From Minisyncoccota bacterium (GTDB taxonomy: Bacteria > Patescibacteriota > Minisyncoccia > Phycocordibacterales > UBA2100): 64,000 nucleotides of DNA. The stretch lies in the NCBI GenBank assembly GCA_965267345.1, contig OZ253947.1:330814-394813 (forward strand). The letters are read 5' to 3'. A model generated the notes under the pieces. It worked only from the letters and a program-made list of their open reading frames with translations, made no database searches and had not been told where the DNA came from. This document shows, piece after piece, positions 8,581 to 57,711 of the stretch. The first letter of the stretch is position 1. Every line of letters begins with the position of its first letter. The translations under genes were made by a program, and so were the position numbers.

Positions 8581-9975
8581 ATGGCACGACCATCATTTGA
8601 CGACATTACACCGCCAGCTCGCGGAAATGATACCGAGACTCCGTCCACTGCACCGCACGCACAGGACGACACACCCACTGCGGAAGAATCGAGTGCGACA
8701 TCTGAGCCTGCATCGATTCGTAACGTTGCGGCGCCGGAGACAAAAGCACGTGTCGAACGACGCGCACGACGAGCTGAGCGTCGCACGCTCGGCGGCAGCG
8801 ACGGCCCAACTGGCCGCTCACACAAAGGAATGACACGCATGGCCATGTGGGGCGGTGCAATCGTGGTGCTGCTCATTGCACTCACGGGAGTTGGGTTTCT
8901 CTTCATTGGCAAAACAACCCTGACCGTTGAGCCACTATCTGAGCGCATCACGCTCGGCGAAAATGTCGTCCACACTGCCTACACTGAGCCGGAAATCGGC
9001 GAATTGGGCTACACCGTGGTATCAGCAACACAGGAAGCGTCGGAAACGATCACCGCAACCGGTAGTGAGTATGTTGAGGAGCGCGCATCAGGGCGCATCG
9101 CTGTGTACAATAACTACAGCTCGGCAAGTCAGCGCCTCATCAAAAACACGCGCTTTGAAGCACCTGACGGCCGCATTTACCGTGTGACAAACTCATTCGT
9201 CGTACCCGGAATGCCCGACGAGGATACCGCAGGGCGCATTGAGGTCACGGTGCACGCTGATGTTCCCGGCTCTGATCAGAATCTCACCGCACTGGGTACA
9301 CGCCTGACCATTCCCGGCCTTGAAGGCGACCCGCGCTACAATGCATTCCACGCTGAGTTGATCACGCCAATTACAGGCGGCTTTGAGGGTGAACGTCCTG
9401 TCGTTGACGAAGCAACCCGTGAGGCAACCCGCACGGCATTGCAGGACCAGTTGCGCCGGCAAGCAGCGGATGCAGCACACGCGGCAGCCGGTGATCTGTA
9501 CGTATTCGACACCGCACTCCAAGTGCAGTTTGAATCACTTCCCATGACCACTGATACCGAGGGCAACGCAACCGTACGTGAACGCGCGCTCATTTCAGCA
9601 GTCGGCTTTACCATGCACGAACTCGCACGTACGCTCGCGCAGAGCGCACTGGCAACGCCGGCTGACGGCACCATCCGCATCGCAAATCCTAACGAGCTTA
9701 CCTTCCGCTTTGTGGGCGACGATGTATCAGTTGCCAATGATGCACTCATTCAGTTCACCCTCAGCGGCACCAGCGTGCTCGTGTGGGATATTGATGTTGA
9801 CGCACTCAAGCAAGACCTCGTCGGTAAGCACAGCACTGTCTTAAATTCGGTCATGAGCGGCTATCCGGGTATTGAGAGCGCCCAAGCAACCATTCGGCCG
9901 TTTTGGAAGAGTGAGTTCCCGAGTGACACTGATAATATTTCGGTCGAAATTACTGATCCCGTACAGAGCCAGTAG
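8581..9975 (+). CDS. hypothetical membrane-anchored protein (charged N-tail, one TM, large extracytoplasmic domain)
   Basis: Start at MARPSFDD. TM helix AMWGGAIVVLLIALTGVGFLFIG. No family recognised. Possibly a partner of the upstream ATPase. Confidence 0.45.
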   Translation: MARPSFDDITPPARGNDTETPSTAPHAQDDTPTAEESSATSEPASIRNVAAPETKARVERRARRAERRTLGGSDGPTGRSHKGMTRMAMWGGAIVVLLIALTGVGFLFIGKTTLTVEPLSERITLGENVVHTAYTEPEIGELGYTVVSATQEASETITATGSEYVEERASGRIAVYNNYSSASQRLIKNTRFEAPDGRIYRVTNSFVVPGMPDEDTAGRIEVTVHADVPGSDQNLTALGTRLTIPGLEGDPRYNAFHAELITPITGGFEGERPVVDEATREATRTALQDQLRRQAADAAHAAAGDLYVFDTALQVQFESLPMTTDTEGNATVRERALISAVGFTMHELARTLAQSALATPADGTIRIANPNELTFRFVGDDVSVANDALIQFTLSGTSVLVWDIDVDALKQDLVGKHSTVLNSVMSGYPGIESAQATIRPFWKSEFPSDTDNISVEITDPVQSQ

Positions 9976-14095: not shown

Positions 14096-14629
14096 ATGAC
14101 TGATACGCACAACGAACACGACGACATTGATGAGATCGAATACGACGAGGACGCTGGGGCTGCGCAGCTGCAAAAACTGCGTGCAAAGCTCAAGGCGTGT
14201 GAGCAAGAGAAGCGCGATAACCTCGACGGGTGGAAGCGGACACAGGCTGACCTCGTCAACGCGCGCACCAAGCACGCGCAGGCACTCACTGACGCGCGCA
14301 CTCGTGCTACGGAAGACGTATTAGTCGATGTCATTACGGCACTTGATAGCTTTGATGTAGCGTTCCGCGGTGACGCGTGGGAGTCCGTCGATGCCAACTG
14401 GCGCACGGGCATTGAGTACATTTACACACAACTCCAGTCGGCACTTGAGCGGCACGGCGTTGCGGCCTATGGAGCGGAAGGGGAGCCATTCGACCCGCAA
14501 CTGCACGAAGCGGTCGGTCAACAACCTACCGATGACGATGCGACTGATACCATCGTACGTGTTGAACGTCGCGGCTACAAAAGTGCCTCACGCATTCTTC
14601 GCCCCGCACAAGTCGTCGTTAGTGCCTAA
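14096..14629 (+). CDS. grpE: nucleotide exchange factor GrpE
   Basis: Coiled-coil N-terminus followed by the GrpE fold. Lies directly upstream of dnaK/dnaJ. Confidence 0.85.
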   Translation: MTDTHNEHDDIDEIEYDEDAGAAQLQKLRAKLKACEQEKRDNLDGWKRTQADLVNARTKHAQALTDARTRATEDVLVDVITALDSFDVAFRGDAWESVDANWRTGIEYIYTQLQSALERHGVAAYGAEGEPFDPQLHEAVGQQPTDDDATDTIVRVERRGYKSASRILRPAQVVVSA

Positions 14630-14654
14630 GTGCACAATACTTTTTTTGAGTGTC

Positions 14655-14690
14655 AATATTGTTGTGTGGAACACATTTTTTATAATGTGG
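14655..14690 (+). promoter_or_regulatory. putative sigma70-like promoter TTGTTG-16-TATAAT with overlapping palindrome TGTGTGGAACACA
   Basis: The -35-like element is at 14659-14664, the -10 TATAAT at 14681-14686, and the palindrome at 14664-14676. They sit in a 145-nt AT-rich gap between grpE and the RHH gene/dnaK. Confidence 0.3.
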
Positions 14691-14774
14691 CCACACATGA
14701 CGTTTCGGAAACATTACATTATCATTGGCAACCGACGTCACGGGTACACACTGCGTCCCGCGCGTGGTGTCACC

Positions 14775-15029
14775 ATGCTCATTTGCGAAAGCGCCAATAT
14801 TAACGACCGCTTTCCGAATGATGAGATCCCGCGCATGCTCGCCGAATTGCCGCGTCTGATCGCTGAGCGGCACGCTGCGCAGCGCGACGCGGCACAGAGC
14901 GAAGTGCTGCGCTTCCGCGTCACCCCTGAGGAGAAGCAGCGCATTGAGCGCAATGCATTCGACGCAGGGTTTGATACGGTATCAGCATACTTGCGGCAGG
15001 TGGCGCTTGGTGACGAAGCAGATACATAA
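14775..15029 (+). CDS. ribbon-helix-helix (MobC/CopG-like) small DNA-binding protein
   Basis: 84 aa. The C-terminal segment LRFRVTPEEKQRIERNAFDAGFDTVSAYLRQVALG matches the MobC/RHH pattern (LRVRLTPEE...SEYLR..AL). There are 37 nt to the dnaK start. Confidence 0.5.
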   Translation: MLICESANINDRFPNDEIPRMLAELPRLIAERHAAQRDAAQSEVLRFRVTPEEKQRIERNAFDAGFDTVSAYLRQVALGDEADT

Positions 15030-15066
15030 GTGATTACACAGCGTTATAAATCATAGCTATTCGTAT

Positions 15067-16968
15067 ATGGGAAAAATATTAGGTATTGACCTCGGTACAA
15101 CAAACTCAGCAATGGCCATCGTCGAAGGCGGTGAGCCAGAAATTATTGAAAATAACGAAGGAAATCGCACCACACCGTCGATTGTCGGTATTTCAAAAAA
15201 CAAGGAGCGCCTCGTTGGTGTCCTCGCAAAACGACAGGCGGTGACCAATCCGCAGAACACCATTTTTGGCGTCAAGCGTTTCGTCGGCCACAAGTTTGGC
15301 GACGCATCGGTACAGCGCGACAAAGACCTCGTGCCGTACGAACTCAAGGAAGGCACTGACAAAGGTGTCCTCATCCACCTCGGCGAGCAAGACTATCGCC
15401 CCGAGGAAATTTCCGCAATGATCCTCCAGAAAATGAAGCGCGACGCAGAGGAGCGCATCGGTGAAGAAATTACCGAAGCGGTAATCACCGTACCCGCCTA
15501 CTTTGACGACGCGCAGCGAAGCGCCACCAAGGCAGCCGGAAAAATTGCCGGTCTCGAGGTGAAGCGCATCATTAATGAGCCAACGGCTGCAGCACTGGCG
15601 TACGGCTTCAACAAGAAAAAGGACGAGCAGATTGTCGTATTTGACTTCGGTGGTGGTACTTTTGACGTATCGGTGCTCGAGGTTGGTGACGATGTGATTG
15701 AAGTGAAGGCAACCGACGGTGACTCACACATGGGTGGCCGTGACATTGATCAGAAAATTATCCAGTGGATTATTGCTGAATTCAAAAAAGAGTCCGGTAT
15801 TGATGTCAGCAAAGACCCGCTCGCACTGCAACGCTTGGATGAAGCAGCCGAGAAGGCAAAAATTGAGCTCTCAAATGCGAGCGAAACAGAAATCAACATC
15901 CCATTCATCACCTCGGATGACTCAGGACCAAAGCACCTCTTGCTCACCCTGACACGCGCAAAGCTGCAGGAACTGGCACAAGAGTACATTGATCGCGCAA
16001 TTGAAATCACTAAGCGTGCTGTTGACGCGAGCCCATTTGAGACAGGTGACATCGACGAAATTATTCTCGTTGGTGGACAGACGCGCATGCCGGCAATTGC
16101 AGAGGCGGTGAAGACACTCTTTGGTAAGGAGCCGAACAAAAGCATCAACCCCGACGAAGTGGTTGCACTCGGTGCCGCCATTCAGGGTGGCATCATGCAA
16201 GGCGACGTGAAGGACGTGCTGTTGCTCGACGTGATTCCGCTGTCACTGGGTATTGAAACCATGGGCGGCATTGCGACAAAACTTATTGAGCGCAACACTA
16301 CCATTCCGACCAGCAAGTCACAGGTATTCTCAACTGCAGCTGATAACCAGCCGTCAGTTGAGATTGTGGTCACGCAAGGGGAGCGCGAGATGGCTGCTGA
16401 CAACAAGACACTGGGCCGATTCGTACTCGACGGCATTGCGCCCGCGCCGCGTGGTGTACCGCAGATTGAGGTAAGCTTCGACATCGATGCCAACGGAATT
16501 CTCAACGTAAAAGCAGTCGACAAGGGCACCAATAAGGAACAGTCCATTCGTATTGAGGGAAGTGCCGGCCTGTCAGAAGAAGAGATCGAGAAGATGAAGG
16601 CTGATGCGGAACAGCACGCAGAAAGCGACAAAAAGAAACGTGAACTCATTGAGGCAAAGAATGCGGCCGAACAGCTTATCTACGCGGCTGAAAAGGCGGT
16701 GAAAGAGCACGGCGACAAGGTTGGCGAGGATGTCACCACGCAGATCACCGAGAAGGTGACCGCACTGAAAACAGCACGCGACGGTGACGACGTTGCGGCA
16801 ATAACCGCAGCATTTGAAGAGCTCAGCAGTGCCATGAGTAAAATCGGTGAGGCAATGCAGCAGCAAGCATCTGAAAGCGACGTGGCTGATGCGACACAGA
16901 ACACTGATACTACAGAAAACGACGACGCACGCGATGCTGAGTTTGACGAGAAAGACGAGAACAAGTAG
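15067..16968 (+). CDS. dnaK: molecular chaperone DnaK (Hsp70)
   Basis: [30 protein letters not shown] and the full Hsp70 architecture. Confidence 0.95.
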
Positions 16969-30331: not shown

Positions 30332-31471
30332 ATGAGGATTGTATTTACAGGTGGCGGTACGGGTGGGCACTTCTACCCGATAATCTCAGTCGCTGAAGAA
30401 CTCCACGAAATTGTTCAGGAAGAAAAACTGATTGAACCTGAGCTCTACTACATTGGTCCCGACGTACTCGATCCGCAGGCGCTCGCCGAGCAAAATATCA
30501 CCTTCAAACGCAGTAGTGCCGGGAAGATGCGCCGCTACCTCGCCATCGAAAACGTCTTTGATCTTTTCAAAACCATTTGGGGTATCATTCAAACAACCGT
30601 ACAGCTTTTCTTCCTCTATCCTGATGTGGTCTTTAGTAAAGGCGGATACGCAAGCTTTCCCACAACGTGCGCTGCACGACTGCTCAATATCCCTGTCATC
30701 GTACACGAGTCTGATGCCCACCCGGGGCGTGCCAACGTGATCACGGCAAAGTGGGCGCAGTCGGTTGCCATCTCATTCTCAGGCGTCGCGAAGTATTTCC
30801 CTGAGAGCGTCAAAGAAAAGATGGCGCTGGTGGGCAACCCGATCCGCCGCGTACTCTTTAAGCCGGCGCGTGAAGGTGCACACACATACCTGAACCTTGA
30901 TCCTGAAGTGCCGACACTGCTTATTCTCGGTGGCTCGCAAGGGGCACAGGCGATCAACAGTGTCGTACTGAATGCGCTGCCGACACTGCTTGAGAAGTAT
31001 CAGGTGATTCATCAAACAGGGAAGGACAACATCGAATCAGTGCGAAATGTGGCGCGCGTTGCCCTGAAAGATCACCCGAACAAAGAACGCTATCGTGCAT
31101 TCGGTTTTCTCAACACATTGGCAATGCGTATGGCGGCCGGTATTGCATCGCTCGTAGTGACCCGTGCCGGCGCAGGATCAATTTTTGAAGTTGCCGCGTG
31201 GCACCTGCCGGCCATCGTCATTCCGCTTCCTGAGGAAATTTCACACGATCAGACCGAAAATGCTTTTGCCTACGCACGTGGCGGCGGTGCCGTCGTGCTC
31301 AAGCAGCAAAACCTGACCGAAAACATACTGGTCGCGGAGATCGATCGCATCATGAGCGACAGCACAGTGCGCGAGCGTATGGTCACCGCCGCAGAAGAGT
31401 TTGCACGCCCCGACGCCGCACGTAAAATTGCACGCATGATTATTACCACGGCACTCACGCACGAAGCATGA
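30332..31471 (+). CDS. murG: UDP-N-acetylglucosamine--N-acetylmuramyl-(pentapeptide) pyrophosphoryl-undecaprenol N-acetylglucosamine transferase
   Basis: N-terminal GGGTGGHFYP G-loop and the C-terminal GT-B domain. Overlaps gltX by 4 nt. Confidence 0.85.
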   Translation: MRIVFTGGGTGGHFYPIISVAEELHEIVQEEKLIEPELYYIGPDVLDPQALAEQNITFKRSSAGKMRRYLAIENVFDLFKTIWGIIQTTVQLFFLYPDVVFSKGGYASFPTTCAARLLNIPVIVHESDAHPGRANVITAKWAQSVAISFSGVAKYFPESVKEKMALVGNPIRRVLFKPAREGAHTYLNLDPEVPTLLILGGSQGAQAINSVVLNALPTLLEKYQVIHQTGKDNIESVRNVARVALKDHPNKERYRAFGFLNTLAMRMAAGIASLVVTRAGAGSIFEVAAWHLPAIVIPLPEEISHDQTENAFAYARGGGAVVLKQQNLTENILVAEIDRIMSDSTVRERMVTAAEEFARPDAARKIARMIITTALTHEA

Positions 31472-32826
31472 TGACGACAAATGCCGCAGCATCAGTGGTA
31501 ACTCGCTTTCCGCCGTCACCAACGGGGCGTTTACACATCGGCAACATCCGTACGATGCTGTTTAACTACCTCTTCACGCGCAAACATGGCGGCGAGATTG
31601 TCATGCGCTTTGAGGACACTGATCGCGAGCGCAGCGATCAGGCACATGAGGCTGATGCACTCGAGGCACTTGCTGAGTTAGGGCTTTCGTTTGATCACGG
31701 ACCGTTCCGGCAATCCGAGCGCACCGACCGCTACATTGCTGCGCTTGAACAATTACTTGCATCAGGACATGCCTACGAGGCCGAGGAATCAAAAGGGGAG
31801 GAGGGCGCACGCGTCATCCGCTTCAAAAACCCGAATACCACACTGTCGTTTAGTGACACGGTCCGTGGCGAGGTGCGCATCGACACAACGGACTTTGGCG
31901 ATTTTGTCATCGCCCGATCGCGTACGAACCCAATCTATCACTTATCGGTTGTTGTTGATGATATGGATATGGGAGTCACCCACGTGATCCGTGGGGAAGA
32001 TCACATCACCTCAACACCACGGCAGATGCTTCTGATTCAAGCGCTCGGCGGTAGCGTGCCGACGTACGCGCACCTCCCGCTCATCATCGGCCCTGACAAA
32101 AAGAAGCTGAGCAAACGACACGGCGCGGTAACCTACCAGGAGTTCAAACGTCTTGGCTATATACCGGCAGCAATCGTGAATTACCTTGCGCTGCTCGGCT
32201 GGAACCCAGGAACTGATCAGGAATTCTTCACCATGGATGAGCTTATTGACACCTTCAGCCTCGAGCGCGTGAACAGTGCTCCCGCCATGTTTTCGTACGA
32301 GAAACTTGCATCGATCAATCGCCACCACATCATGCAATTGTCAGATATCGCGTACCAGAACTATATCCGCGATTTTGTTGGTGATAGTGCGGCTGCTGAG
32401 GCACTCGTAGCACACCCACGATTTGCAGCGATTGTCGATCTGGTGTTCAAAGATCGTGTCTACGCATTTGACGACGCGCGGGCAATGATTGAAGGGGGAG
32501 AGCTCGACTGGTTAGCTGCGCTGCCGGAGTATGATGCGGCGACACTCTGCTGGAAAGATAGTGCCCCTGAGCGCATTCGTGAGCATCTCACGCATACGCG
32601 TACGGTCTTCGCCGACATGCCGGATGACCAGTGGCACCACGAACAGCTCAAAGCGGCGCTCTGGGAGTACGCAACCGACGCAGGCCGTGGTGAAGTGCTC
32701 TGGCCGCTCCGTTTTGCACTCACCGCACAGGAGAAATCGCCTGATCCTTTTACCGTTGCGGATATACTCGGCAGGGAAACTACCGTGGCACGGATTGACT
32801 ACGCGCTTACACAGCTCGCTACGTAA
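31468..32826 (+). CDS. gltX: glutamate--tRNA ligase
   Basis: RFPPSPTGRLHIGNIRT (HIGH) and KLSKR (KMSKS-like). Confidence 0.9.
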   Translation: MMTTNAAASVVTRFPPSPTGRLHIGNIRTMLFNYLFTRKHGGEIVMRFEDTDRERSDQAHEADALEALAELGLSFDHGPFRQSERTDRYIAALEQLLASGHAYEAEESKGEEGARVIRFKNPNTTLSFSDTVRGEVRIDTTDFGDFVIARSRTNPIYHLSVVVDDMDMGVTHVIRGEDHITSTPRQMLLIQALGGSVPTYAHLPLIIGPDKKKLSKRHGAVTYQEFKRLGYIPAAIVNYLALLGWNPGTDQEFFTMDELIDTFSLERVNSAPAMFSYEKLASINRHHIMQLSDIAYQNYIRDFVGDSAAAEALVAHPRFAAIVDLVFKDRVYAFDDARAMIEGGELDWLAALPEYDAATLCWKDSAPERIREHLTHTRTVFADMPDDQWHHEQLKAALWEYATDAGRGEVLWPLRFALTAQEKSPDPFTVADILGRETTVARIDYALTQLAT

Positions 32827-32827
32827 T

Positions 32828-34111
32828 ATGAAGCTATTCACGCGACAGAGCAGTGCATTTTTCATCGGCATGGCCGTTGCAATGCTACCGGCAACGGGTG
32901 TATTCGCGCAGAGCGTAGATGAACTTCGCGGAAAAATTGATGAGCAGCAGAGCGAAATTCAGGAGCTCGAAGCGGAGATTGCACAGTATGAACAGGAACT
33001 CCAATCGATTGGACGCGAGAAGCAAACGCTCGAGAGTGCGGTGCGCGAGCTTGATGTCGCTCGTCAACAAGTTAATGCGAAAATAGCGCTCGCCCAACGC
33101 CAGATTAATCAAACAAGCGAACGCATTGATGAGCTCAGCGGCGACATTAATGAAAAAGAGGCTAGAATTGAACGAAACTCGGAAGCGCTTGCCGAAGCGA
33201 TTCGTCGCATGCACGAATCAGAGTCAGAATCGATGGTGGAAGTGGTACTCGGCAGCGACAACATCTCGACGCTTTGGACTGACTTAGAGACGCTACGTCA
33301 GTTCCAGACAGTCGTGCGTAGCGAAGTGGACGAGCTCATAGTACAAAAGCGTGATCTTGAGGATGTGCGCGTTGAGTCACAAGAAAAACAGGAGCAACTA
33401 GTTGCGCAAAAGCAAGAGCTTGCCACACAACAGCGCGCACTCAATATTAACCGCGCCGCAAAGAACGAGCTTCTCGAACAGACAGAGAACGAAGAATCAA
33501 ACTACCAGCAACTCCTTGCCGAAAAACGCCAAGCAAGAGATGAGTTTGAGGCACAGCTGCGTGAGTTTGAGGCACAGCTACAGTATCAACTCGACCCAAC
33601 TTCGATCCCACCTCCAGGGAAGGGAGTATTTCGCTGGCCACTTGATAACGTCACCATCACCCAGTACTTTGGCAATACGCAATTTGCACAATCGGGGGCC
33701 TATAATGGCCGCGGCCACAACGGCATCGATCTGCGCGCCGCAATCGGTACACCCGTCAAAGCGGCGCTCTCCGGAAATGTTTTGGCGACAGGGAACACGG
33801 ATGCCATTCGCGGTTGCTACTCATACGGAAAGTGGGTTGTCGTTGAACACGTGAACGGCCTTGCGACACTCTACGCACACCTTTCAGAAATTCGCGTATC
33901 AGAAGGCCAAGCAGTTGGCACCGGAAGCGTCCTCGGGTACTCCGGCAACACCGGTTACTCAACCGGTCCGCATTTGCACTTTACGGTCTACGCAGCAGAT
34001 GCAGTCGAAATTGTGCGCTTGGGTGATATTAAGGCACGCACTAACTGTGCTGACGCCTACATACCCGTCGCACCGTACGAAGGTTACCTCAACCCACTCA
34101 ATTACCTGTAG
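32828..34111 (+). CDS. M23 (LytM) family peptidase with coiled-coil N-terminal region
   Basis: Signal peptide (MKLFTRQSSAFFIGMAVAMLPATGVFAQ), a long coiled coil, and a C-terminal M23 domain (HNGIDLRAAIGTPVKAALSGNV..GYSGNTGYSTGPHLHF). The in-frame upstream extension overlapping gltX is rejected. Confidence 0.8.
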   Translation: MKLFTRQSSAFFIGMAVAMLPATGVFAQSVDELRGKIDEQQSEIQELEAEIAQYEQELQSIGREKQTLESAVRELDVARQQVNAKIALAQRQINQTSERIDELSGDINEKEARIERNSEALAEAIRRMHESESESMVEVVLGSDNISTLWTDLETLRQFQTVVRSEVDELIVQKRDLEDVRVESQEKQEQLVAQKQELATQQRALNINRAAKNELLEQTENEESNYQQLLAEKRQARDEFEAQLREFEAQLQYQLDPTSIPPPGKGVFRWPLDNVTITQYFGNTQFAQSGAYNGRGHNGIDLRAAIGTPVKAALSGNVLATGNTDAIRGCYSYGKWVVVEHVNGLATLYAHLSEIRVSEGQAVGTGSVLGYSGNTGYSTGPHLHFTVYAADAVEIVRLGDIKARTNCADAYIPVAPYEGYLNPLNYL

Positions 34112-34374
34112 TGTGTATCGCGCATGCTAAACGTCGCACAATTTTAAGAGTGCTGAAACAGTGGTAGAGGAGCGAGAGGTTTCATTAGCGACGAAAACGA
34201 CACTGGAAATCGATACGATAGGATAAGAATGGATACTCACTCATGCGCGCGGATCTTTTTTTATGCACCAAATACATGTATAGCGCAGCGAGATCACGGA
34301 ACGAAGCCACATCGCGCCCAGCGGCTGTAGCGCGGTGTAGTGCGCTATGCACATATATATACGTCGCAAAAGAT

Positions 34375-34390
34375 ATATTGTACGACACAT
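34375..34390. repeat. 16-nt exact repeat ATATTGTACGACACAT, copy 1 (copy 2 at 36429-36444)
   Basis: The two copies are identical. Copy 1 lies in the AT-rich non-coding stretch, amid several TGTACGAC-like motifs. Confidence 0.6.
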
Positions 34391-35097
34391 ACATATATTC
34401 TAATACGTCCGCTCTATAATGCAACCTCTCACTTCCCTGTGGTTCTTGTGCGACGTGGTGTGTGGATGTTCTTTTGCGATGCACATGTTGTTTCTTGTAC
34501 GACGCTCGCCCTACCGTGGCTGTGTTGTGTTGAATGCTTCGCAAAAGAATGGATACAAGGTCGTGGTGTAAACCTTTTCGGAAGGTCCCCTTCCCTCTAG
34601 GTATACGACACGTTCTTTGAAAGCTTGGTGGAAACAAAAAGAGCCACACAGTGTGTGACTCTTCAGTTGTGTAATTCACTCAGTGGTACATAGTACCAAC
34701 ATCGGCCGGGATAACACCCGCTACGATTCTCGTGAGGACAACGGTTCTGCTCGAATACCATCAGGTCAGAGACGTACTAGTGTAAAAGAAGACGTACGTA
34801 CTTCCCCGCACTACAATGACCCTATGGTTTACAGATCGTCCCCGTGTTTCACTTTGCCGTTTACGCGAGACCAATAGCTACCGCGGCCACTATAAAAATG
34901 CGCCAGTCCGGTAGGTACTACTATGCACCACTCAATGAACTACTTATTCAATTACGTAGAGCTTGCGCACTCACACAACTGAATGCCTAAAGTATAACAT
35001 ATTCCCTTCCACCCAGCTTTCAGTGATGAAAGCAAACCACAAGACACTCACCTACGACAGTGATACAATTACCACGAATCTTTATGGTGATCATGAT

Positions 35098-35499
35098 ATG
35101 AAATGTAAGCTTGAGTACGCCCTGGTGGCAGAGAATGCAATTATCGACTCCGATTCAAATAAACTCACTGTCGTAGGCCTTTTCAGTAAAATACGAATAC
35201 CGACTGATGGTGGGTCTGTAAGAGTTAATTTTGTTGTTGCAGGAAAAATATCATTGGAAGACATCGCCGGCGAAGATCCTCGGGAACTCACGGTGAAGAT
35301 CGTCAAACCGAACGGAAAGGTTCTCGCTCAAGAAAGTATGAGAGGGCCGCTTGATACCGACGTCACGTTTAGAGCATTTTTCACGCTGATTGAGTTTAAG
35401 GAGGTAGGTTCCTACCATGTGAAGGTTGAGTTTGGTGGCGAAGAGCTCGAGATTAGCAATACTATTGGTTCTTTCAAGGTTGTTGAACGCGAAGCGTGA
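35098..35499 (+). CDS. hypothetical beta-rich protein (island ORFan)
   Basis: 133 aa. A GGTGA ribosome-binding site sits 7 nt upstream of ATG 35098. Low-GC codon usage. A 4-nt gap separates it from the next gene. Confidence 0.45.
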   Translation: MKCKLEYALVAENAIIDSDSNKLTVVGLFSKIRIPTDGGSVRVNFVVAGKISLEDIAGEDPRELTVKIVKPNGKVLAQESMRGPLDTDVTFRAFFTLIEFKEVGSYHVKVEFGGEELEISNTIGSFKVVEREA

Positions 35500-35503
35500 G
35501 CCT

Positions 35504-35884
35504 ATGGAACGAATACAGAATCCGTGGAGCACTTCTCAAGATGACGGAACGGGACATAATCGGCCGAGGATAATTACTTTGGGCAAAAGCCAGTCAGATG
35601 CCATTGACGAACTACGTGACCTTTACAGCAAAACAAGTAAAGACCTAGAGAGAACTCAGGAAGATGTATCGGAGCTGAGAGGACTAAAAACTATAGTAGA
35701 TAAGTACAGCAACCTTCTTATTCTTGGGTTCGCCATTTTGCTTGTAATGGTTGTAAGTATTCTAATGATCACTTTCCAATCCTTTATGGAAACGTATCGC
35801 TACAAAGAAGCGAAGTACAATGAGTACGTAAAGGCTGTTGAGTCACTGGATTCAAAAATAGAAGCCTTACAGACTGAAAAATGA
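35504..35884 (+). CDS. hypothetical protein with coiled-coil segments and a C-terminal TM helix (island ORFan)
   Basis: 126 aa (MERIQNPWSTSQDDG...LLILGFAILLVMVVSILMITF..). Co-directional with, and 4 nt after, 35098-35499. Confidence 0.45.
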   Translation: MERIQNPWSTSQDDGTGHNRPRIITLGKSQSDAIDELRDLYSKTSKDLERTQEDVSELRGLKTIVDKYSNLLILGFAILLVMVVSILMITFQSFMETYRYKEAKYNEYVKAVESLDSKIEALQTEK

Positions 35885-35887
35885 AAA

Positions 35888-35907
35888 ACACCACCCTACT
35901 CTCTTGG
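35888..35907. repeat. about 20-nt direct repeat ACACCACCCTACTCTCTTGG, copy 1 (copy 2 at 36392-36412, ACCACCGCCCTACTCTCTTGC)
   Basis: Two near-identical copies bracket the minus-strand gene 35915-36388 almost exactly. Confidence 0.55.
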
Positions 35908-35914
35908 GGTGTCT

Positions 35915-36388
35915 CTAGTGTGCCTTTCTAAGGAGTGTACTTGGTTTGTACCCAACGACCGTGAACTTCACAGCAACATTCGGCGCACCACCGGATGTGT
36001 AATACGCCAAAGGAGTTCCTACAAAACGAAATAGATCAGCTGATGGAATCTGTTCGTCCTTTAACTTCCCAAAGTCCACATGGACACTTGGAATAACAGG
36101 TAAGTATACGAAAGTATAGTCGTCTATGGGTTGCACTTGATAGTACCATTGTGTAGCTTCTTTACCTTTTACTGGGACCACGTTGACCACAATATCTTTA
36201 TCCCCTTCTGCACGAGTTCCATCTGGATTAAAAAGTGCTTTCTTAACGTTGAGTTCCTCAGCGTGTTTATCAAGGTATTCAAGCAGCGCCAGAACATCTG
36301 CAATAACCATGTCGTGAATAATAGCATCAAACTCCTCCTGAGTTATCTTCGAGGGGTCTATCTCTAAGGTGTGTTGCTCTTCGAGCAC
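35915..36388 (-). CDS. hypothetical protein (island ORFan)
   Basis: 157 aa, acidic N-terminus (MLEEQHTLEIDPSKITQEEFDAIIHDM..). Convergent with the upstream two-gene operon. Flanked by the 20-nt direct repeats. Confidence 0.5.
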   Translation of the reverse strand: MLEEQHTLEIDPSKITQEEFDAIIHDMVIADVLALLEYLDKHAEELNVKKALFNPDGTRAEGDKDIVVNVVPVKGKEATQWYYQVQPIDDYTFVYLPVIPSVHVDFGKLKDEQIPSADLFRFVGTPLAYYTSGGAPNVAVKFTVVGYKPSTLLRKAH

Positions 36389-36391
36389 ATG

Positions 36392-36412
36392 ACCACCGCC
36401 CTACTCTCTTGC
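36392..36412. repeat. direct-repeat copy 2 (ACCACCGCCCTACTCTCTTGC)
   Basis: See 35888-35907. Confidence 0.55.
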
Positions 36413-36428
36413 GACCAGCGCAGAGGTC

Positions 36429-36444
36429 ATATTGTACGACACAT
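36429..36444. repeat. 16-nt exact repeat ATATTGTACGACACAT, copy 2
   Basis: Identical to 34375-34390. Immediately followed by TATAAT (36445-36450). Confidence 0.6.
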
Positions 36445-36510
36445 TATAATACCTGCTTTACCGCTACCCTATAAGTACCGAGGCTCTGCGGGGCGAATTG
36501 ATGATAGTAT

Positions 36511-36759
36511 GTGTTTATGTCCTCCGGCATCAAGGTACAGCGAGGCAGAGAGAGTTGGGACTACATTTACACTACACTCGGCTTTACCCTAACCATAGAG
36601 GGTGTCTTGGTGAGCTATGTTCCCTTTCCCCACTGGCAGGCAAATATTTTTATTGCCGGTTCTCTGTTTATACTCACCATTAAATGCTTCCTAGAAAGCG
36701 AGTGGCTGCACAATGAACTGATCGGGATTAAGGAACGTTATGAAAACGAGTGGCGATAG
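36511..36759 (+). CDS. small hypothetical membrane protein
   Basis: 82 aa with two hydrophobic segments. Weak ribosome-binding site. Confidence 0.3.
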   Translation: MFMSSGIKVQRGRESWDYIYTTLGFTLTIEGVLVSYVPFPHWQANIFIAGSLFILTIKCFLESEWLHNELIGIKERYENEWR

Positions 36760-36861
36760 TCTCCCCTTTTTAGTGCAAGCACGTACGGAACATGTTCTAT
36801 TGACACAATATATATTTTATGTGATAGTTTTATTCCTCGAACTACAGCATGGAGAAATGGT

Positions 36862-36963
36862 ATGGATCGGCAGAATGCGCAGCAATTCGGATTGGGACTA
36901 GGAAAATACGTCCTGGTTCCGATGCTCATCTTCATCATTGCGGCTCTTGCCATTTGGGGCTAG
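36862..36963 (+). CDS. 33-aa single-TM peptide (MDRQNAQQFGLGLGKYVLVPMLIFIIAALAIWG)
   Basis: Upstream TTGACA (36800-36805), 17-nt spacer, TGtGATAGT extended -10, and GGAGA ribosome-binding site. Followed by a hairpin plus T-run terminator. Confidence 0.45.
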   Translation: MDRQNAQQFGLGLGKYVLVPMLIFIIAALAIWG

Positions 36964-36975
36964 GACGTCCGTGGG

Positions 36976-37014
36976 GGCTCGGCTAAACGATTCTGAGGCC
37001 GAGCCCTTTTCGTT
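36976..37014 (+). terminator. intrinsic terminator (GGCTCGGC...GCCGAGCC + CTTTTCGTT)
   Basis: 8-bp GC-rich stem followed by a T-run, directly after the 33-aa ORF. Confidence 0.5.
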
Positions 37015-37136
37015 GCCACCATGCGTCGCTTTCGGGCAGCCTAACCAAAGGGGTGCTCTAAGCGCCCCGCCTCACTCTTTTTACTCTTTTTGTTACGAGT
37101 CACTACCCTACACTATTTCGTATAGGTAAAGTAAAA

Positions 37137-37174
37137 CGCTCGGACCCCGAGGGACAGGGAAAAGGGTCCGAGCG
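37137..37174. repeat. strong hairpin (CGCTCGGACCC...GGGTCCGAGCG, 11-bp stem) in a non-coding hairpin cluster
   Basis: One of four consecutive stem-loops in the non-coding stretch 36964-37345. No flanking T-run on either strand. Confidence 0.4.
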
Positions 37175-37291
37175 CTACCGGCTATGTCTTTGGGGTTCCG
37201 AGACCTTTTCGGGTTTGGGGGGGAAGGTCTCAAAAAAGACACACCGGCACTTCTAGTGTGCCCCTATTAGCAGCATGAGTCAAATGTACAA

Positions 37292-37319
37292 GCGGCCTGT
37301 CGTCGAAACGACAGGCCGC
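37292..37319 (-). terminator. hairpin (GCGGCCTGTCG-TCGAAA-CGACAGGCCGC), probable terminator of minus-strand gene 37346-37591
   Basis: 11-bp stem immediately downstream (minus sense) of the stop at 37346, followed by a U-rich stretch in minus sense. Confidence 0.4.
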
Positions 37320-37345
37320 CCCTTCGTGAACGATCGCCGAGGATG

Positions 37346-37591
37346 TCACCATGACTCGAGAAATAGTGGCTGTAGCCGAGCTTGGTATACTCCCGCGAAA
37401 GCAGTCTCGTAAGAACTCACTACATAGAAACCGTTCGCTCCGTCCACGGACAGGACAGTTTTGCAACACACTGGGAACAGTTGCGTATGTGCCTCATCGT
37501 CAGCATACATGGGCGTCGTAATTTCACTACCCACTGGAAAACCGACTCCGGGGCAACCAACCTGCGTAACGTTCTCATAATCTGAGCTCAT
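37346..37591 (-). CDS. hypothetical 81-aa Cys-containing protein (island ORFan)
   Basis: An AAAGGGGA ribosome-binding site lies 5 nt upstream of ATG (MSSDYENVTQVGCPGVGFPV...). A TATACT -10 lies upstream in minus sense. Confidence 0.45.
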   Translation of the reverse strand: MSSDYENVTQVGCPGVGFPVGSEITTPMYADDEAHTQLFPVCCKTVLSVDGANGFYVVSSYETAFAGVYQARLQPLFLESW

Positions 37592-37852
37592 CGCTTTCCC
37601 CTTTCTTCTTATATGCTGTCTTGTCTGCAGCTGAGTATATGCGCAAATAGCACGAAAAGAAAGACGCACCGCGCAATAGAAGTAAGGCGAGGCGCTCCAA
37701 GCGGCCCCGCCGCGTTGGTATCTCCTGGTACCCCACTGCTTTGACGAGAGAGACGGTCGATAGCTGTTTCCACGTATCCAAATCAAATACCGGTATACAT
37801 GAAAAGAGTGCGTTTAGGGGGTCTCGGAGACAGCGAGAAATGAGAGCACTCG

Positions 37853-38215
37853 TTAGTAGTGACGCCGCCCACGCAAGTGGTGCATCCGTGGATGCAGATA
37901 GATGTAAGCAATGTGTTTGAGTGAATCTGTTATGTGAGCATATGCGTAGCTCCCTACTTCCCTGATCTGAGACGCCGCATAGACACCTATATCGGCGAGT
38001 GCTTCATAGAGCCCGCGAACAAACAAACGGCGTATTGCGTAGCTTCGTCCAAACCCAATGGCGATCTGAATGACGGCCAATATGCCGAAATTGGTGACAT
38101 TGTAAGGCATACCAAACAGTGGTAGCAAAATGAGATTGACCCCAAACATGAGGGCAACCCCGACGGTGACATTAAGTGCGCTTTCAGTAAGCGATTTTCT
38201 ACACGTATCTCGCAT
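37853..38215 (-). CDS. hypothetical membrane protein (2 TM plus basic C-tail)
   Basis: 120 aa. TM segments VTVGVALMFGVNLILLPLFG and NFGILAVIQIAIGFG. No clear ribosome-binding site. Confidence 0.35.
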   Translation of the reverse strand: MRDTCRKSLTESALNVTVGVALMFGVNLILLPLFGMPYNVTNFGILAVIQIAIGFGRSYAIRRLFVRGLYEALADIGVYAASQIREVGSYAYAHITDSLKHIAYIYLHPRMHHLRGRRHY

Positions 38216-38351
38216 ATATGCTTGCGGTGCTTACTAACCCCATAGTTACACTACCACAGACCAATGCAATGGCGTCGTGTTTATAACCCGTTGACGTACA
38301 GTAAAAATCGCTGCACTATGTGAAGGGCTGGTAACGTAGAGGAGGTATCCA

Positions 38352-38477
38352 ATGCGTAGTAAGCCAAGTACCGTGGGAACTGAAGAGGAGCATATGGGCG
38401 TTAAGGATGCTCTCGTGCTGGTCATCCTGGCGAGCATCGCGTTCGTCTTCGTCTCATATATCTTTTTTGGCCCATAA
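38352..38477 (+). CDS. 41-aa single-TM peptide (MRSKPSTVGTEEEHMGVKDALVLVILASIAFVFVSYIFFGP)
   Basis: GGAGG ribosome-binding site 6 nt upstream. Upstream TTGACG-17-CACTAT. Terminator at 38486-38520. Absent from the ORF track (shorter than 60 aa). Confidence 0.5.
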   Translation: MRSKPSTVGTEEEHMGVKDALVLVILASIAFVFVSYIFFGP

Positions 38478-38485
38478 GACCTTTT

Positions 38486-38520
38486 GCGCTGCCTCGCCAT
38501 CACGAGGCAGCGCATTCTCT
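38486..38520 (+). terminator. intrinsic terminator (GCGCTGCCTCG...CGAGGCAGCGC + T-rich)
   Basis: 11-bp stem followed by ATTCTCTTTT. Confidence 0.5.
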
Positions 38521-38688
38521 TTTAACAAACGACCATGGTACCAGCTAGGACTTGAATATGCAGTGCTGAGTACCAAACGGGTCGTGAGAGCCCTCCTTTT
38601 TCAGTGAGAAGTAGGGGCCATGTTATTTTTTGACAATTCACTTTTACGGGTACATCATTACCGTCCAACATGTAAAGGAGGTCAACGA

Positions 38689-38829
38689 ATGACGATACTG
38701 GGATCTCGGCCCAACGAGCTGACTCGGTTTCAGAAGGAGCATCCACGACTTTGGGCGTTCCTGTGCTTCAGTTTGCCGGCACTCGTCTTGGGCATGGGCA
38801 TCGGCCTTGCCCTGCACGGTCATTTCTGA
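38689..38829 (+). CDS. 46-aa single-TM peptide (MTILGSRPNELTRFQKEHPRLWAFLCFSLPALVLGMGIGLALHGHF)
   Basis: AAAGGAGG ribosome-binding site 6 nt upstream. Upstream TTGACA-17-CATCAT. Terminator at 38852-38882. The ORF-track entry 38620-38829 is an upstream extension. Confidence 0.5.
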   Translation: MTILGSRPNELTRFQKEHPRLWAFLCFSLPALVLGMGIGLALHGHF

Positions 38830-38851
38830 CCTATTTTTTCACTCTGTTGGA

Positions 38852-38882
38852 GCCCCGCTGCGTACCAGCGGGGCTTTTGTTT
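38852..38882 (+). terminator. intrinsic terminator (GCCCCGCTG-CGTAC-CAGCGGGGC + TTTTGTTTT)
   Basis: 9-bp GC stem plus T-run. Confidence 0.55.
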
Positions 38883-38954
38883 TATAGGTTTATTGACAGC
38901 TCAGTGAAATGAGCGTATCGTCACAGGTCCAACCAATGAAAGGAGGGTTGCACA

Positions 38955-39158
38955 ATGTCTGACGTTGCAGAACACACCGTCGTCGATGATGGACCGGAAG
39001 AACACGAGCACGACGAGAACTGCGGCCACGACGAGGGGGTATCCGAGGATACTACTCCTGCGGGATTCCCTCGTTGGGCACGCATCCTGATCGTCCTTGC
39101 TATGATCATCCTGATCATGTTCGGCGGCGGCGAGTTGCTCAACACGTTCATGCGCTAA
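38955..39158 (+). CDS. 67-aa single-TM protein with acidic His/Cys-rich N-terminus (…EEHEHDENCGHDEG…FPRWARILIVLAMIILIMFGGG…)
   Basis: AAAGGAGGG ribosome-binding site. Upstream TTGACA-17-TATCGT. Terminator hairpin at 39181-39218. Confidence 0.55.
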   Translation: MSDVAEHTVVDDGPEEHEHDENCGHDEGVSEDTTPAGFPRWARILIVLAMIILIMFGGGELLNTFMR

Positions 39159-39180
39159 CCGCACCGAGTACCTGAGTTGG

Positions 39181-39218
39181 GAGAGCCCTGCTCTTCTTGA
39201 ATGAGGAGCTGGGCTCTC
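39181..39218 (+). terminator. terminator-like hairpin GAGAGCCCTGCTCTTC-TTGAAT-GAGGAGCTGGGCTCTC
   Basis: Imperfect long stem with a TTGAAT loop, directly after the 67-aa ORF. Related to the hairpin at 39458-39494. Confidence 0.45.
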
Positions 39219-39301
39219 TTCATACCTGCGTCATTTGACATTACCCTGTTTCCTATGGCACGGTACACCTCCACCCACTGAGAACGGAAAGGAGGATTCA
39301 T

Positions 39302-39436
39302 CATGGAAAAAGAAGAAGCACCACGCAAGGTTAAAGATCTCGGGGCGACGATGCACAAGTGGGCATTCGTCCTCGTCAGTCTCGCTATCATTATCTGGGT
39401 TGCGTGGGATCAGCTGATCGGCCCCATGGTCAACTA
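39302..39436 (+). CDS. 44-aa single-TM peptide (MEKEEAPRKVKDLGATMHKWAFVLVSLAIIIWVAWDQLIGPMVN)
   Basis: AAAGGAGG ribosome-binding site 7 nt upstream. Upstream TTGACA-like promoter. Shares the H-x-(K/R)-WAF motif with the 46-aa peptide. Terminator at 39458-39494. Confidence 0.55.
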
Positions 39437-39457
39437 ACGAGTACAAGTATCACGGTG

Positions 39458-39494
39458 GAGAGCCTAGCTCTCTTGAATGAGAGCTAGGCTCTTT
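39458..39494 (+). terminator. intrinsic terminator AGAGCCTAGCTCTC-TTGAAT-GAGAGCTAGGCTCT + TTT
   Basis: Perfect 14-bp stem, the same TTGAAT loop as the hairpin at 39181-39218, and a T-run. Confidence 0.6.
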
Positions 39495-39512
39495 TACTGT
39501 CCGCCGCGTTTT

Positions 39513-57533: not shown

Positions 57534-57693
57534 TAGTCCTCTTTTCGATTCCCACACTACTGGTGACTTGAGGGAATCGGTCACCTTTGCTAAGTATTTT
57601 ACATCACTATCGCTCGTAAAATACTAAGCGACGCGACCCCGACGTCGCTGACAAGCCGCTGCCACAGGCAGCTCTTGTATACCAGCGACTCTT

Positions 57694-57711
57694 TTCGATT
57701 CCCTCATCGCC
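57694..57711. repeat. inverted copy of the tRNA-Trp 3' end (TTCGATTCCCTCATCGCC)
   Basis: Exact reverse complement of 57761-57778. The 15-nt CTCTTTTCGATTCCC occurs at 57539-57553 and again at 57689-57703. CCCCGACGTCG occurs at 57637-57647 and again at 57780-57790. Confidence 0.6.

Follow-up and report, generated by a model that had tools for sequence, protein, structure and literature searches.

A three-gene, low-GC insert between dif-like sites in a Patescibacteria chromosome, a possible remnant of a Xer-exploiting element

The window analysed in this study is a 64,000-nucleotide (nt) segment of a chromosome of the Patescibacteria, or Candidate Phyla Radiation (CPR), taken from contig OZ253947.1 of a Minisyncoccota bacterium. 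It contains two small open reading frames (ORFs) on the plus strand, ORF1 and ORF2, that converge on a third, ORF3, on the minus strand, and a short direct repeat stands on either side of ORF3. A preliminary description of this locus treated the genes as ORFans and proposed that the repeat represents the ends of a single-gene cassette, a recombination site or, alternatively, a duplicated regulatory or terminator element. The locus thus raises the question of how these three genes came to lie where they do, and what part the repeat has in this. All three proteins are found on one 644,490-bp contig in public records, and the 64-kb window covers about 10% of this 644-kb genome. The explanation preferred here, to which a probability of about 60% is given, is that ORF1-ORF3 are the cargo or remnant of a module resembling integrative mobile elements exploiting Xer (IMEX), integrated at a chromosomal dif site, and that the repeat is an internal duplication derived from a terminator.

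The locus is a low-GC island at a conserved hotspot. To its left is a long run of plus-strand genes, of which GltX has its nearest counterpart in a collection of species-representative genomes in a Patescibacteria metagenome-assembled genome (MAG), at 64% identity. To its right is a run of minus-strand genes encoding a PPOX-like protein, a flavin adenine dinucleotide (FAD) oxidase, an SPFH/Band 7 protein and others. The synteny of both flanks is kept in four relatives (L001, L002, L004 and L005), where the flanks are 1.1 to about 7 kb apart and the DNA between them has no genes in common with the window. In the window itself the corresponding gap (34112-39512) holds few convincing genes and is reduced in GC content, with a minimum of 44-45% around ORF1-ORF3 against 53-55% outside.

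Comparison of the island with its relatives by blastn revealed one conserved non-coding element at 34353-34424, 81% identical to L001 14329-14399, whose core, ACGTCGCAAAAGATATATTGTACGACAC, is a 28-bp site designated here as E. Sites of the dif type are 28 bp long and consist of two 11-bp arms and a 6-bp centre, the inner parts of the arms being palindromic (PMC3025954; PMC6449649). E has the same 11-6-11 geometry; four of its six inner pairs (positions 7-12 against 17-22) are complementary, which is at the published threshold for dif and not above it, and four outer pairs add to the palindrome, which becomes nearly perfect in the TGCGAC variant found in relatives. Over positions 5-22 of what we take to be the Escherichia coli dif sequence, E agrees at 13 of 18 positions and the TGCGAC variant at 14, while 12-13 of 18 agree with the presumed dif sequence of Bacillus subtilis.

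Conservation of E is high relative to that of its surroundings, since in L004, where proteins are only about 60% identical to those of the window, 27-28 of its 28 positions are unchanged. It is also found once each in L001, L002, L005, L006 and L010, with one to six mismatches. In all six relatives the site follows the M23 peptidase gene at a distance of 0.3-4 kb, in the variable gap where the plus-strand gene block meets the minus-strand one. One full copy is present in the window and one in each relative locus, and 1.03 Mb of unrelated loci yielded a single match, at eight mismatches. Position, layout and conservation together suggest that E may be a dif-type chromosomal site at the replication terminus, on which Xer recombinases would act.

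A second site, E2, lies 2054 nt away in the same orientation. Its right arm is identical to that of E and its left arm is degenerate, and an exact 16-mer common to both sites takes in the right arm and some of the centre. The intervening 2026 nt have a GC content of 44.7%, against 53-55% in the core, and enclose exactly ORF1-ORF3 together with about 640 nt of non-coding DNA. The combination of a full site with a hybrid in direct orientation, as seen at prophage ends, is the signature of the attachment sites attL and attR in an IMEX-type insertion, and suggests that the module entered by the Xer route. In the mechanism proposed, a circular element without an integrase of its own would have recombined with dif through the host Xer machinery, leaving the intact E as attL at the left boundary and, as attR at the right boundary, the hybrid E2, in which the right arm would have been kept and the left arm would be foreign and degenerate. 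The preliminary idea of an insert bounded by recombination sites thus appears to hold at a larger scale, that of all three genes, and for E and E2 rather than for the repeat.

Related loci present the same arrangement with other contents. In L001 a module of 1.2 kb (14336-15603) lies between the full site and a hybrid site at 15576-15603, 1240 nt to the right; its cargo is one minus-strand gene for a 182-amino-acid (aa) membrane/coiled-coil protein, and it has no ORF3 homologue. The degenerate left arms of the two hybrids are alike (CAGAGG in E2, CAGAAGG in L001), and the two inserts have three backbone pieces in common, namely the dif-proximal flank, a GCTTTC-N6-GAAAGC hairpin (35016-35033 in the window) and a terminator. 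The stretch around this hairpin matches L001 15188-15226 at 81% and folds at -8.9 kcal/mol (z -4.3). L004 has a single, apparently unoccupied site between convergent genes. Its 9932-9975 stretch aligns by blastn with window positions 36429-36473 (82%), and its right flank is closer to the right flank of E2 than to that of E, the difference being modest. Neither an identical module nor a circular junction was found elsewhere.

The 19-nt core of E was also found in 17 IMG/VR contigs. Four low-GC, Patescibacteria-like contigs of 10-11 kb (L120, L123, L125 and L126) carry pairs of sites, spaced about 5.1-5.9 kb apart, that enclose integrated elements. Among the enclosed ORFs of L123, the one of the four that was scanned, are those for a Zot-like ATPase and a rolling-circle replication initiator (Rep), and none had an integrase match. 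A homologue of the window gene at 30332-31471 lies outside the sites, in the host flank of the inovirus-like contigs. Related contigs of 4-5 kb (L110-L113 and L118) have one site each.

Both IMEX and dif modules are known kinds of element. IMEX, of which CTXphi is an example, are described in PMC6744903 and bioRxiv 10.64898/2026.06.12.731946. Like CTXphi, TLCphi and VGJphi of Vibrio and the gonococcal genetic island, the window module lies at a dif-type site, stands between a functional-looking dif and a dif/attP hybrid that point the same way, has no recombinase gene of its own, its three proteins being free of recombinase domains, and differs from the chromosome in base composition; moreover, relatives of E host inovirus-like prophages with Zot and rolling-circle Rep, as in Vibrio. 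It differs from them in its length of only about 2 kb and its content of three small cargo genes, none of them for replication or morphogenesis, in its host, a Patescibacteria/CPR bacterium for which the dependence on Xer is proposed here, and in the divergent centre of the hybrid site, owing to which the insert may be fixed. The dif (pdif) modules of Acinetobacter are likewise small, discrete modules, each with one or a few accessory genes, bounded by 28-bp XerC/XerD-like sites, with different cargo on one backbone from genome to genome (PMC6449649), comparable to the window and L001. In contrast to these, E and E2 point in the same direction and lie at what is presumed to be the main site of the chromosome, and the window module is not counted among them. 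Coordinates of the features are given in Table 1.

Table 1. Features of the window and of related loci. Positions refer to the window unless a locus (L number) is named.
Feature	Position	Strand	Description
GltX	31468-32826	+	End of the long plus-strand gene run left of the module
M23 peptidase	32531-34111	+	Last gene of the left plus-strand run
Inverted dif-like half-site	34131-34158	-	Just after the M23 stop codon; right arm TTGTGCGACGT conserved, left arm degenerate
E, full dif-like site	34361-34388	+	28 bp, 11-6-11: ACGTCGCAAAA GATATA TTGTACGACAC; proposed chromosomal Xer/dif site, attL
dif-proximal insert end	34389-34424	+	Resembles the same position in the L001 module (blastn, flank score matrix)
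Terminator-like hairpin	34638-34664	-	12 bp and T-run; in the 640-nt non-coding left part of the insert
Backbone hairpin/palindrome	35006-35034	+	TTCCACCCAGCTTTCAGTGATGAAAGCA; upstream of ORF1, contains the annotated ATG 35026
ORF1	35098-35499	+	133 aa, DUF6941 protein, beta-rich
ORF2	35504-35884	+	126 aa, bitopic membrane protein
R1, repeat copy 1	35887-35912	none	Putative decayed terminator hairpin; between the stop codons of ORF2 and ORF3, which face each other across 30 nt
ORF3	35915-36388	-	157 aa, pI 4.9, convergent with ORF2
Leader hairpin	36387-36432	-	R2 and the degenerate left arm of E2; covers the annotated GTG
R2, repeat copy 2	36394-36411	none	Putative terminator 5' arm and loop only; 3 nt from E2
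E2, hybrid dif-like site	36415-36442	+	CCAGCGCAGAG GTCATA TTGTACGACAC; proposed attR
Flank right of E2	36443-36478	+	Resembles the right flank of the unoccupied L004 site
Small membrane protein gene	37853-38215		DUF7220/phrog_4276 match; only recognisable gene in the right part of the island (36445-39512)
ORF3-family genes near IS1595-family transposases	L085 98-943; L105 8883-9740; L106 4462-5319; L107 2529-3386		0.1-1.7 kb apart
ORF3-family genes adjoining small transmembrane and helical proteins	L081 315-1267; L086 2463-3259; L105 6427-7217; L085 1031-2431
Site pairs on 10-11-kb contigs	L120 2193-7633; L123 2059-7518; L125 2620-8499; L126 3548-8667		Full site and site with degenerate left arm

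The repeat, first described as 20 nt long, is present in two copies (R1 and R2), the best alignment of which is ungapped and identical at 17 of 18 positions (CACCACCCTACTCTCTTG at 35889-35906, CACCGCCCTACTCTCTTG at 36394-36411), with an exact 13-mer core, CCCTACTCTCTTG. The motif occurs exactly twice in the window. Outside it, 13 single matches were found in unrelated contigs (12 metagenomic and one viral) without homologues of the window proteins, which indicates that the motif is neither dispersed nor the end of a mobile element. Its nature is best explained by the L001 module, which contains at 15253-15285 a perfect bidirectional intrinsic terminator, AAAAACCACCC-TACTCC-GGGTGGTTTTT, folding at -17.4 kcal/mol (z -5.5). 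Both R1 and R2 align with this terminator over its A-tract, 5' arm and loop, and the 12-mer ACCACCCTACTC is common to them. R1 retains a weak 5-bp stem and a U-run on the minus (ORF3) strand only, and was missed by a terminator consensus scan. The best-supported reading is that the repeat is a duplicated terminator half-site from the non-coding backbone of the module, in line with the last of the preliminary proposals. R1 would then be a decayed terminator between the convergent ORF2 and ORF3, and R2 a partial duplicate in the ORF3 leader, predicted to form a stable hairpin together with the left arm of E2. The predicted energy of this hairpin is -30.4 kcal/mol on the minus strand (z -3.5) and -15.5 on the plus strand, and it may affect the expression of ORF3.

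A common origin of R1 and R2 could be disputed on the ground that two pyrimidine-rich intergenic stretches resemble each other by coincidence. The identity of only 17/18 over 18 nt allows for this; matches to the 13-mer core with up to two mismatches reached two in 12 of 100 shuffles, and about 2.6 matches with up to four mismatches were expected in the 324 kb scanned, where two extra ones were seen. Such a coincidence is nevertheless unlikely, since first-order Markov simulations of the window gave 0.067 expected pairs of at least 17/18 within 1 kb, against four observed, and since both copies have 12-13 nt in common with a terminator at the equivalent place in the L001 module. The other three close pairs are a tandem duplication in the M23 peptidase gene, the T-arms of two tRNAs and one pair without an evident source. 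The R1/R2 pair is probably not due to chance, yet it is not extraordinary. The M23 duplication is of 21 nt, at 33540-33578 in a coiled-coil region (17/18 identical). Another 17/18 direct repeat, without an evident source, lies beside tRNA-Trp, with copies 150 nt apart at 57539-57556 and 57689-57706 (CTCTTTTCGATTCCCACA / ...CTCA).

The first of the preliminary proposals, in which the repeat of 18-20 nt marks the ends of a single-gene cassette, or a target-site or att duplication left by insertion of ORF3, draws on the same rarity of the pair, as well as on the L001 module, where the terminator occurs once and both ORF3 homologue and R2 are missing. It also draws on the close bracketing of ORF3, which holds for the annotated GTG start, with the copies 8 and 5 nt from the gene ends, and fails for ATG 36310, where the conserved core of the protein begins some 80 nt further in. 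This explanation is quite unlikely. No comparable repeats flank the ORF3 homologues in L081, L084, L085, L086 and L087; the motif was never found paired elsewhere, the metagenome matches speaking against a cassette in this respect; and its homology with the L001 terminator accounts for it as a shared terminator half-site, the outcome that the preliminary description itself had named as contradicting a cassette. A lone promoter-less gene with short recombination sequences at its ends would recall the integron cassette with its attC site. However, the flanks contain no RYYYAAC/GTTRRRY inverted cores or other attC-like features and no integron integrase or other recombinase gene is nearby, and the repeat is direct and terminator-derived.

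Several observations weigh against the proposed origin of ORF1-ORF3 as an IMEX-like module at dif. Full copies of E were counted in 64 kb of a 644-kb genome, and the GC skew flattens at E yet keeps its sign. No tyrosine recombinase or Xer gene was found among the ten window ORFs scanned, the window being 10% of the genome, and no search was made for FtsK. The centre of E2 differs from that of E at two of six positions, which may prevent excision today. attL and attR are defined by flank similarities that are only modest, scoring 10-13 where the background is 2-9. Genes for replication or mobilisation are absent from the module; apart from the site itself, comparison of the island with the inovirus-like contigs gave no protein similarity. 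No E-like sites were found near other ORF3 homologues in 82 kb. With regard to the repeat, the fold of R1 is no better than that of shuffled sequences (z -0.15 on the minus and -0.25 on the plus strand), and there is no T-run on the plus strand. Given the lack of replication genes and of protein similarity to the inovirus-like contigs, together with the divergent centre of E2, the module may be a fixed fossil, that is, a passive remnant rather than a mobile unit.

The main alternative for E itself is an operator role, in which E and E2 are operators of a dimeric transcription factor or promoter elements, and ORF1-ORF3 are ordinary, co-controlled genes of the island. E is a near-perfect AT-centred palindrome that may bear some resemblance to NrdR-type boxes; directly beside E2 is a box ATTATAAT that can be read as a TATAAT -10 hexamer on either strand, another TATAAT lies about 27 nt right of E, and four genomes have inverted half-sites on the left of E. 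This alternative is also quite unlikely and fits poorly with the pattern around the prophages, where the same site flanks integrase-less elements as a full and a hybrid copy in direct repeat. In addition, the L004 site is flanked by convergent genes and none is evident that it could control, E matches the dif core and has the 11-6-11 geometry, and second copies keep only the right arm, as is expected of att hybrids and not of operators.

Other elements of the island may be listed alongside these sites. The inverted half-site to the left of E has equivalents at L001 14096-14107, L002 12742-12753 and L004 9677-9688, and in all four genomes it lies 230-290 nt left of the main site, next to the stop codon of the M23 peptidase gene; it is outside the bounds of ORF1-ORF3, and candidates for its nature are an old scar, an accessory site and the end of an invertible segment. 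A 16-nt inverted repeat (34618-34633 and 35007-35022, complementary at 15 of 16 positions) spans 373 nt of non-coding DNA; its right arm overlaps the hairpin upstream of ORF1 and its left arm abuts the terminator-like hairpin at 34638-34664. A possible third dif-like relic beside R1 was rejected, as the partial TGTAC match sits within the coding sequence for the conserved GYKP..LL motif of ORF3. Farther right in the island, the plus strand has two strong terminator hairpins of 12 bp (38485-38514 and 38849-38877), which have no obvious gene upstream and could mark small RNAs, small ORFs or decayed phage DNA. An Rfam scan of the island and of L002 and L004 found no family at threshold.

The coordinates and sizes of the three ORFs, their convergence and the acidity of ORF3 were confirmed as first described, and their start sites are uncertain. 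Public annotation gives ORF1 157 aa, from ATG 35026, and ORF2 101 aa, from TTG 35579. For ORF1 the 133-aa start is favoured, because position 1 of the DUF6941 profile aligns at residue 6. The spacing of 4 nt between ORF1 and ORF2, on which an operon had been proposed, holds with ATG 35504 as the start of ORF2 and is lost with TTG 35579. In ORF3 the conserved core starts at Met27, encoded by ATG 36310: an MI(S/G/A)D..AL start lies opposite this residue in 20 of 31 aligned homologues, while a few homologues have an N-terminal extension with faint similarity to residues 1-26. As most homologues begin at Met27, the real start is either ATG 36310 or the annotated GTG 36388; with the former, the second repeat copy would lie about 80 nt upstream of the gene, not about 4-5 nt.

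ORF1 matches the Pfam family DUF6941 (PF22091) at 35.2 bits, above the curated gathering cut-off of 27, and spans nearly the whole profile (positions 1-117 of 125). DUF6941 has no assigned function and was not mentioned in the literature searched in full text, and no match to ORF1 was found among PDB sequences. The transmembrane helix of ORF2, first placed at the C-terminus, is instead central (about residues 63-91), with helical or coiled segments on both sides. In a word-indexed homology search ORF1, ORF2 and ORF3 each retrieved only itself, and all are singletons at 90% identity. An exhaustive phmmer search with ORF3 found 81 relatives at E<=1e-3 and 27 at E<=1e-10, mostly of about 130 aa, one of them annotated from a Saccharimonadales MAG. 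No homologues of ORF2 were found. Two of the three supposed ORFans therefore belong to families, ORF1 to DUF6941 and ORF3 to an unnamed one, and the statement that none of the proteins was recognisable stands for ORF2 alone, which stays a singleton. Together with the reassignment of the repeat as a terminator half-site, this corrects most of the original finding.

With a 32-sequence alignment AlphaFold2 produced a confident model of ORF3, with a predicted local distance difference test (pLDDT) score of 90.4, against 40 for the single sequence. In the model an eight-stranded beta-sandwich is preceded by a helix at the N-terminus and followed by a short one at the C-terminus. A profile search of the family alignment against Pfam, PHROGs and PDB gave no match, and the best Foldseek hit in PDB was not significant (E 0.49). 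In BFVD the best hit (E 1.9e-3, template modelling score 0.36) was among uncharacterised and tail-fibre-like beta-sandwiches, a similarity too weak for a function to be deduced from these viral resemblances, and such an assignment was rejected. The conserved residues of the family are mostly aromatic or hydrophobic, with one Arg and one Asn and no conserved catalytic residues, which suggests that the protein has a binding or structural role and is not an enzyme. The products of all three ORFs are small and without conserved catalytic motifs, and are most likely accessory proteins with a structural, binding or envelope-associated role. A tblastn search with ORF1 and ORF3 of 50,697 phage genomes gave no match.

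ORF3 homologues occur in varied chromosomal contexts, several of them beside IS1595 transposases and small membrane/coiled-coil proteins. Proximity to IS1595 was found in two independent contexts, which is consistent with the ORF3 family being accessory or mobile cargo; the L085 gene also has phage-like genes close by, one of them for an SU10-type adaptor. Twice, an ORF3-family gene and its small membrane neighbour overlap by 4 nt at their start and stop codons. These neighbours echo ORF2 of the window and are non-homologous among themselves; a conserved partner gene for ORF3 was considered and rejected, as recurrent neighbours that are unrelated to one another could be associated by chance. 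No other locus examined has ORF1, ORF2 and ORF3 together. The suggestion that the genes form a toxin/immunity or anti-phage defence module, which can appeal to their small size, the mobile low-GC context, the frequent membrane/coiled-coil neighbours of the ORF3 family and the toxin-antitoxin pairs often carried by Xer-flanked Acinetobacter modules (PMC6449649), is very unlikely, since searches of Pfam, NCBIfam, PHROGs and PADLOC matched none of the three to a toxin, antitoxin or defence family (nothing below E=0.03, and no defence component in PADLOC), the ORF3 family has no conserved catalytic residues, and neither its neighbours nor the ORF1-ORF3 combination are constant.

A wider proposal, possible though doubtful at present, is that the dif-type site beside the M23 peptidase gene is the main hotspot for accessory genes in Patescibacteria, where tiny non-autonomous modules hijacking Xer, besides inovirus-like prophages, move in and out by means of the host recombinases. 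These mini-modules would have a common backbone, consisting of an att arm, the GCTTTC-N6-GAAAGC hairpin and a terminator, with interchangeable cargo such as DUF6941 proteins, small membrane proteins and the ORF3 family, and would make up a dif-based cassette system among the smallest of bacterial genomes. No dif-type site, IMEX prophage or mini-module of Patescibacteria was found in the literature searched, nor any paper in its full text combining "Candidate Phyla Radiation", XerD and dif.

The genomes of CPR/Patescibacteria are tiny and streamlined, and little is known of how they gain accessory genes. If E is dif, it would provide a sequence marker of the replication terminus in uncultured lineages and a predictable landing pad for strain-specific genes and small filamentous phages. 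Its att sequence would then also link Xer-integrating viral contigs to their Patescibacteria hosts.

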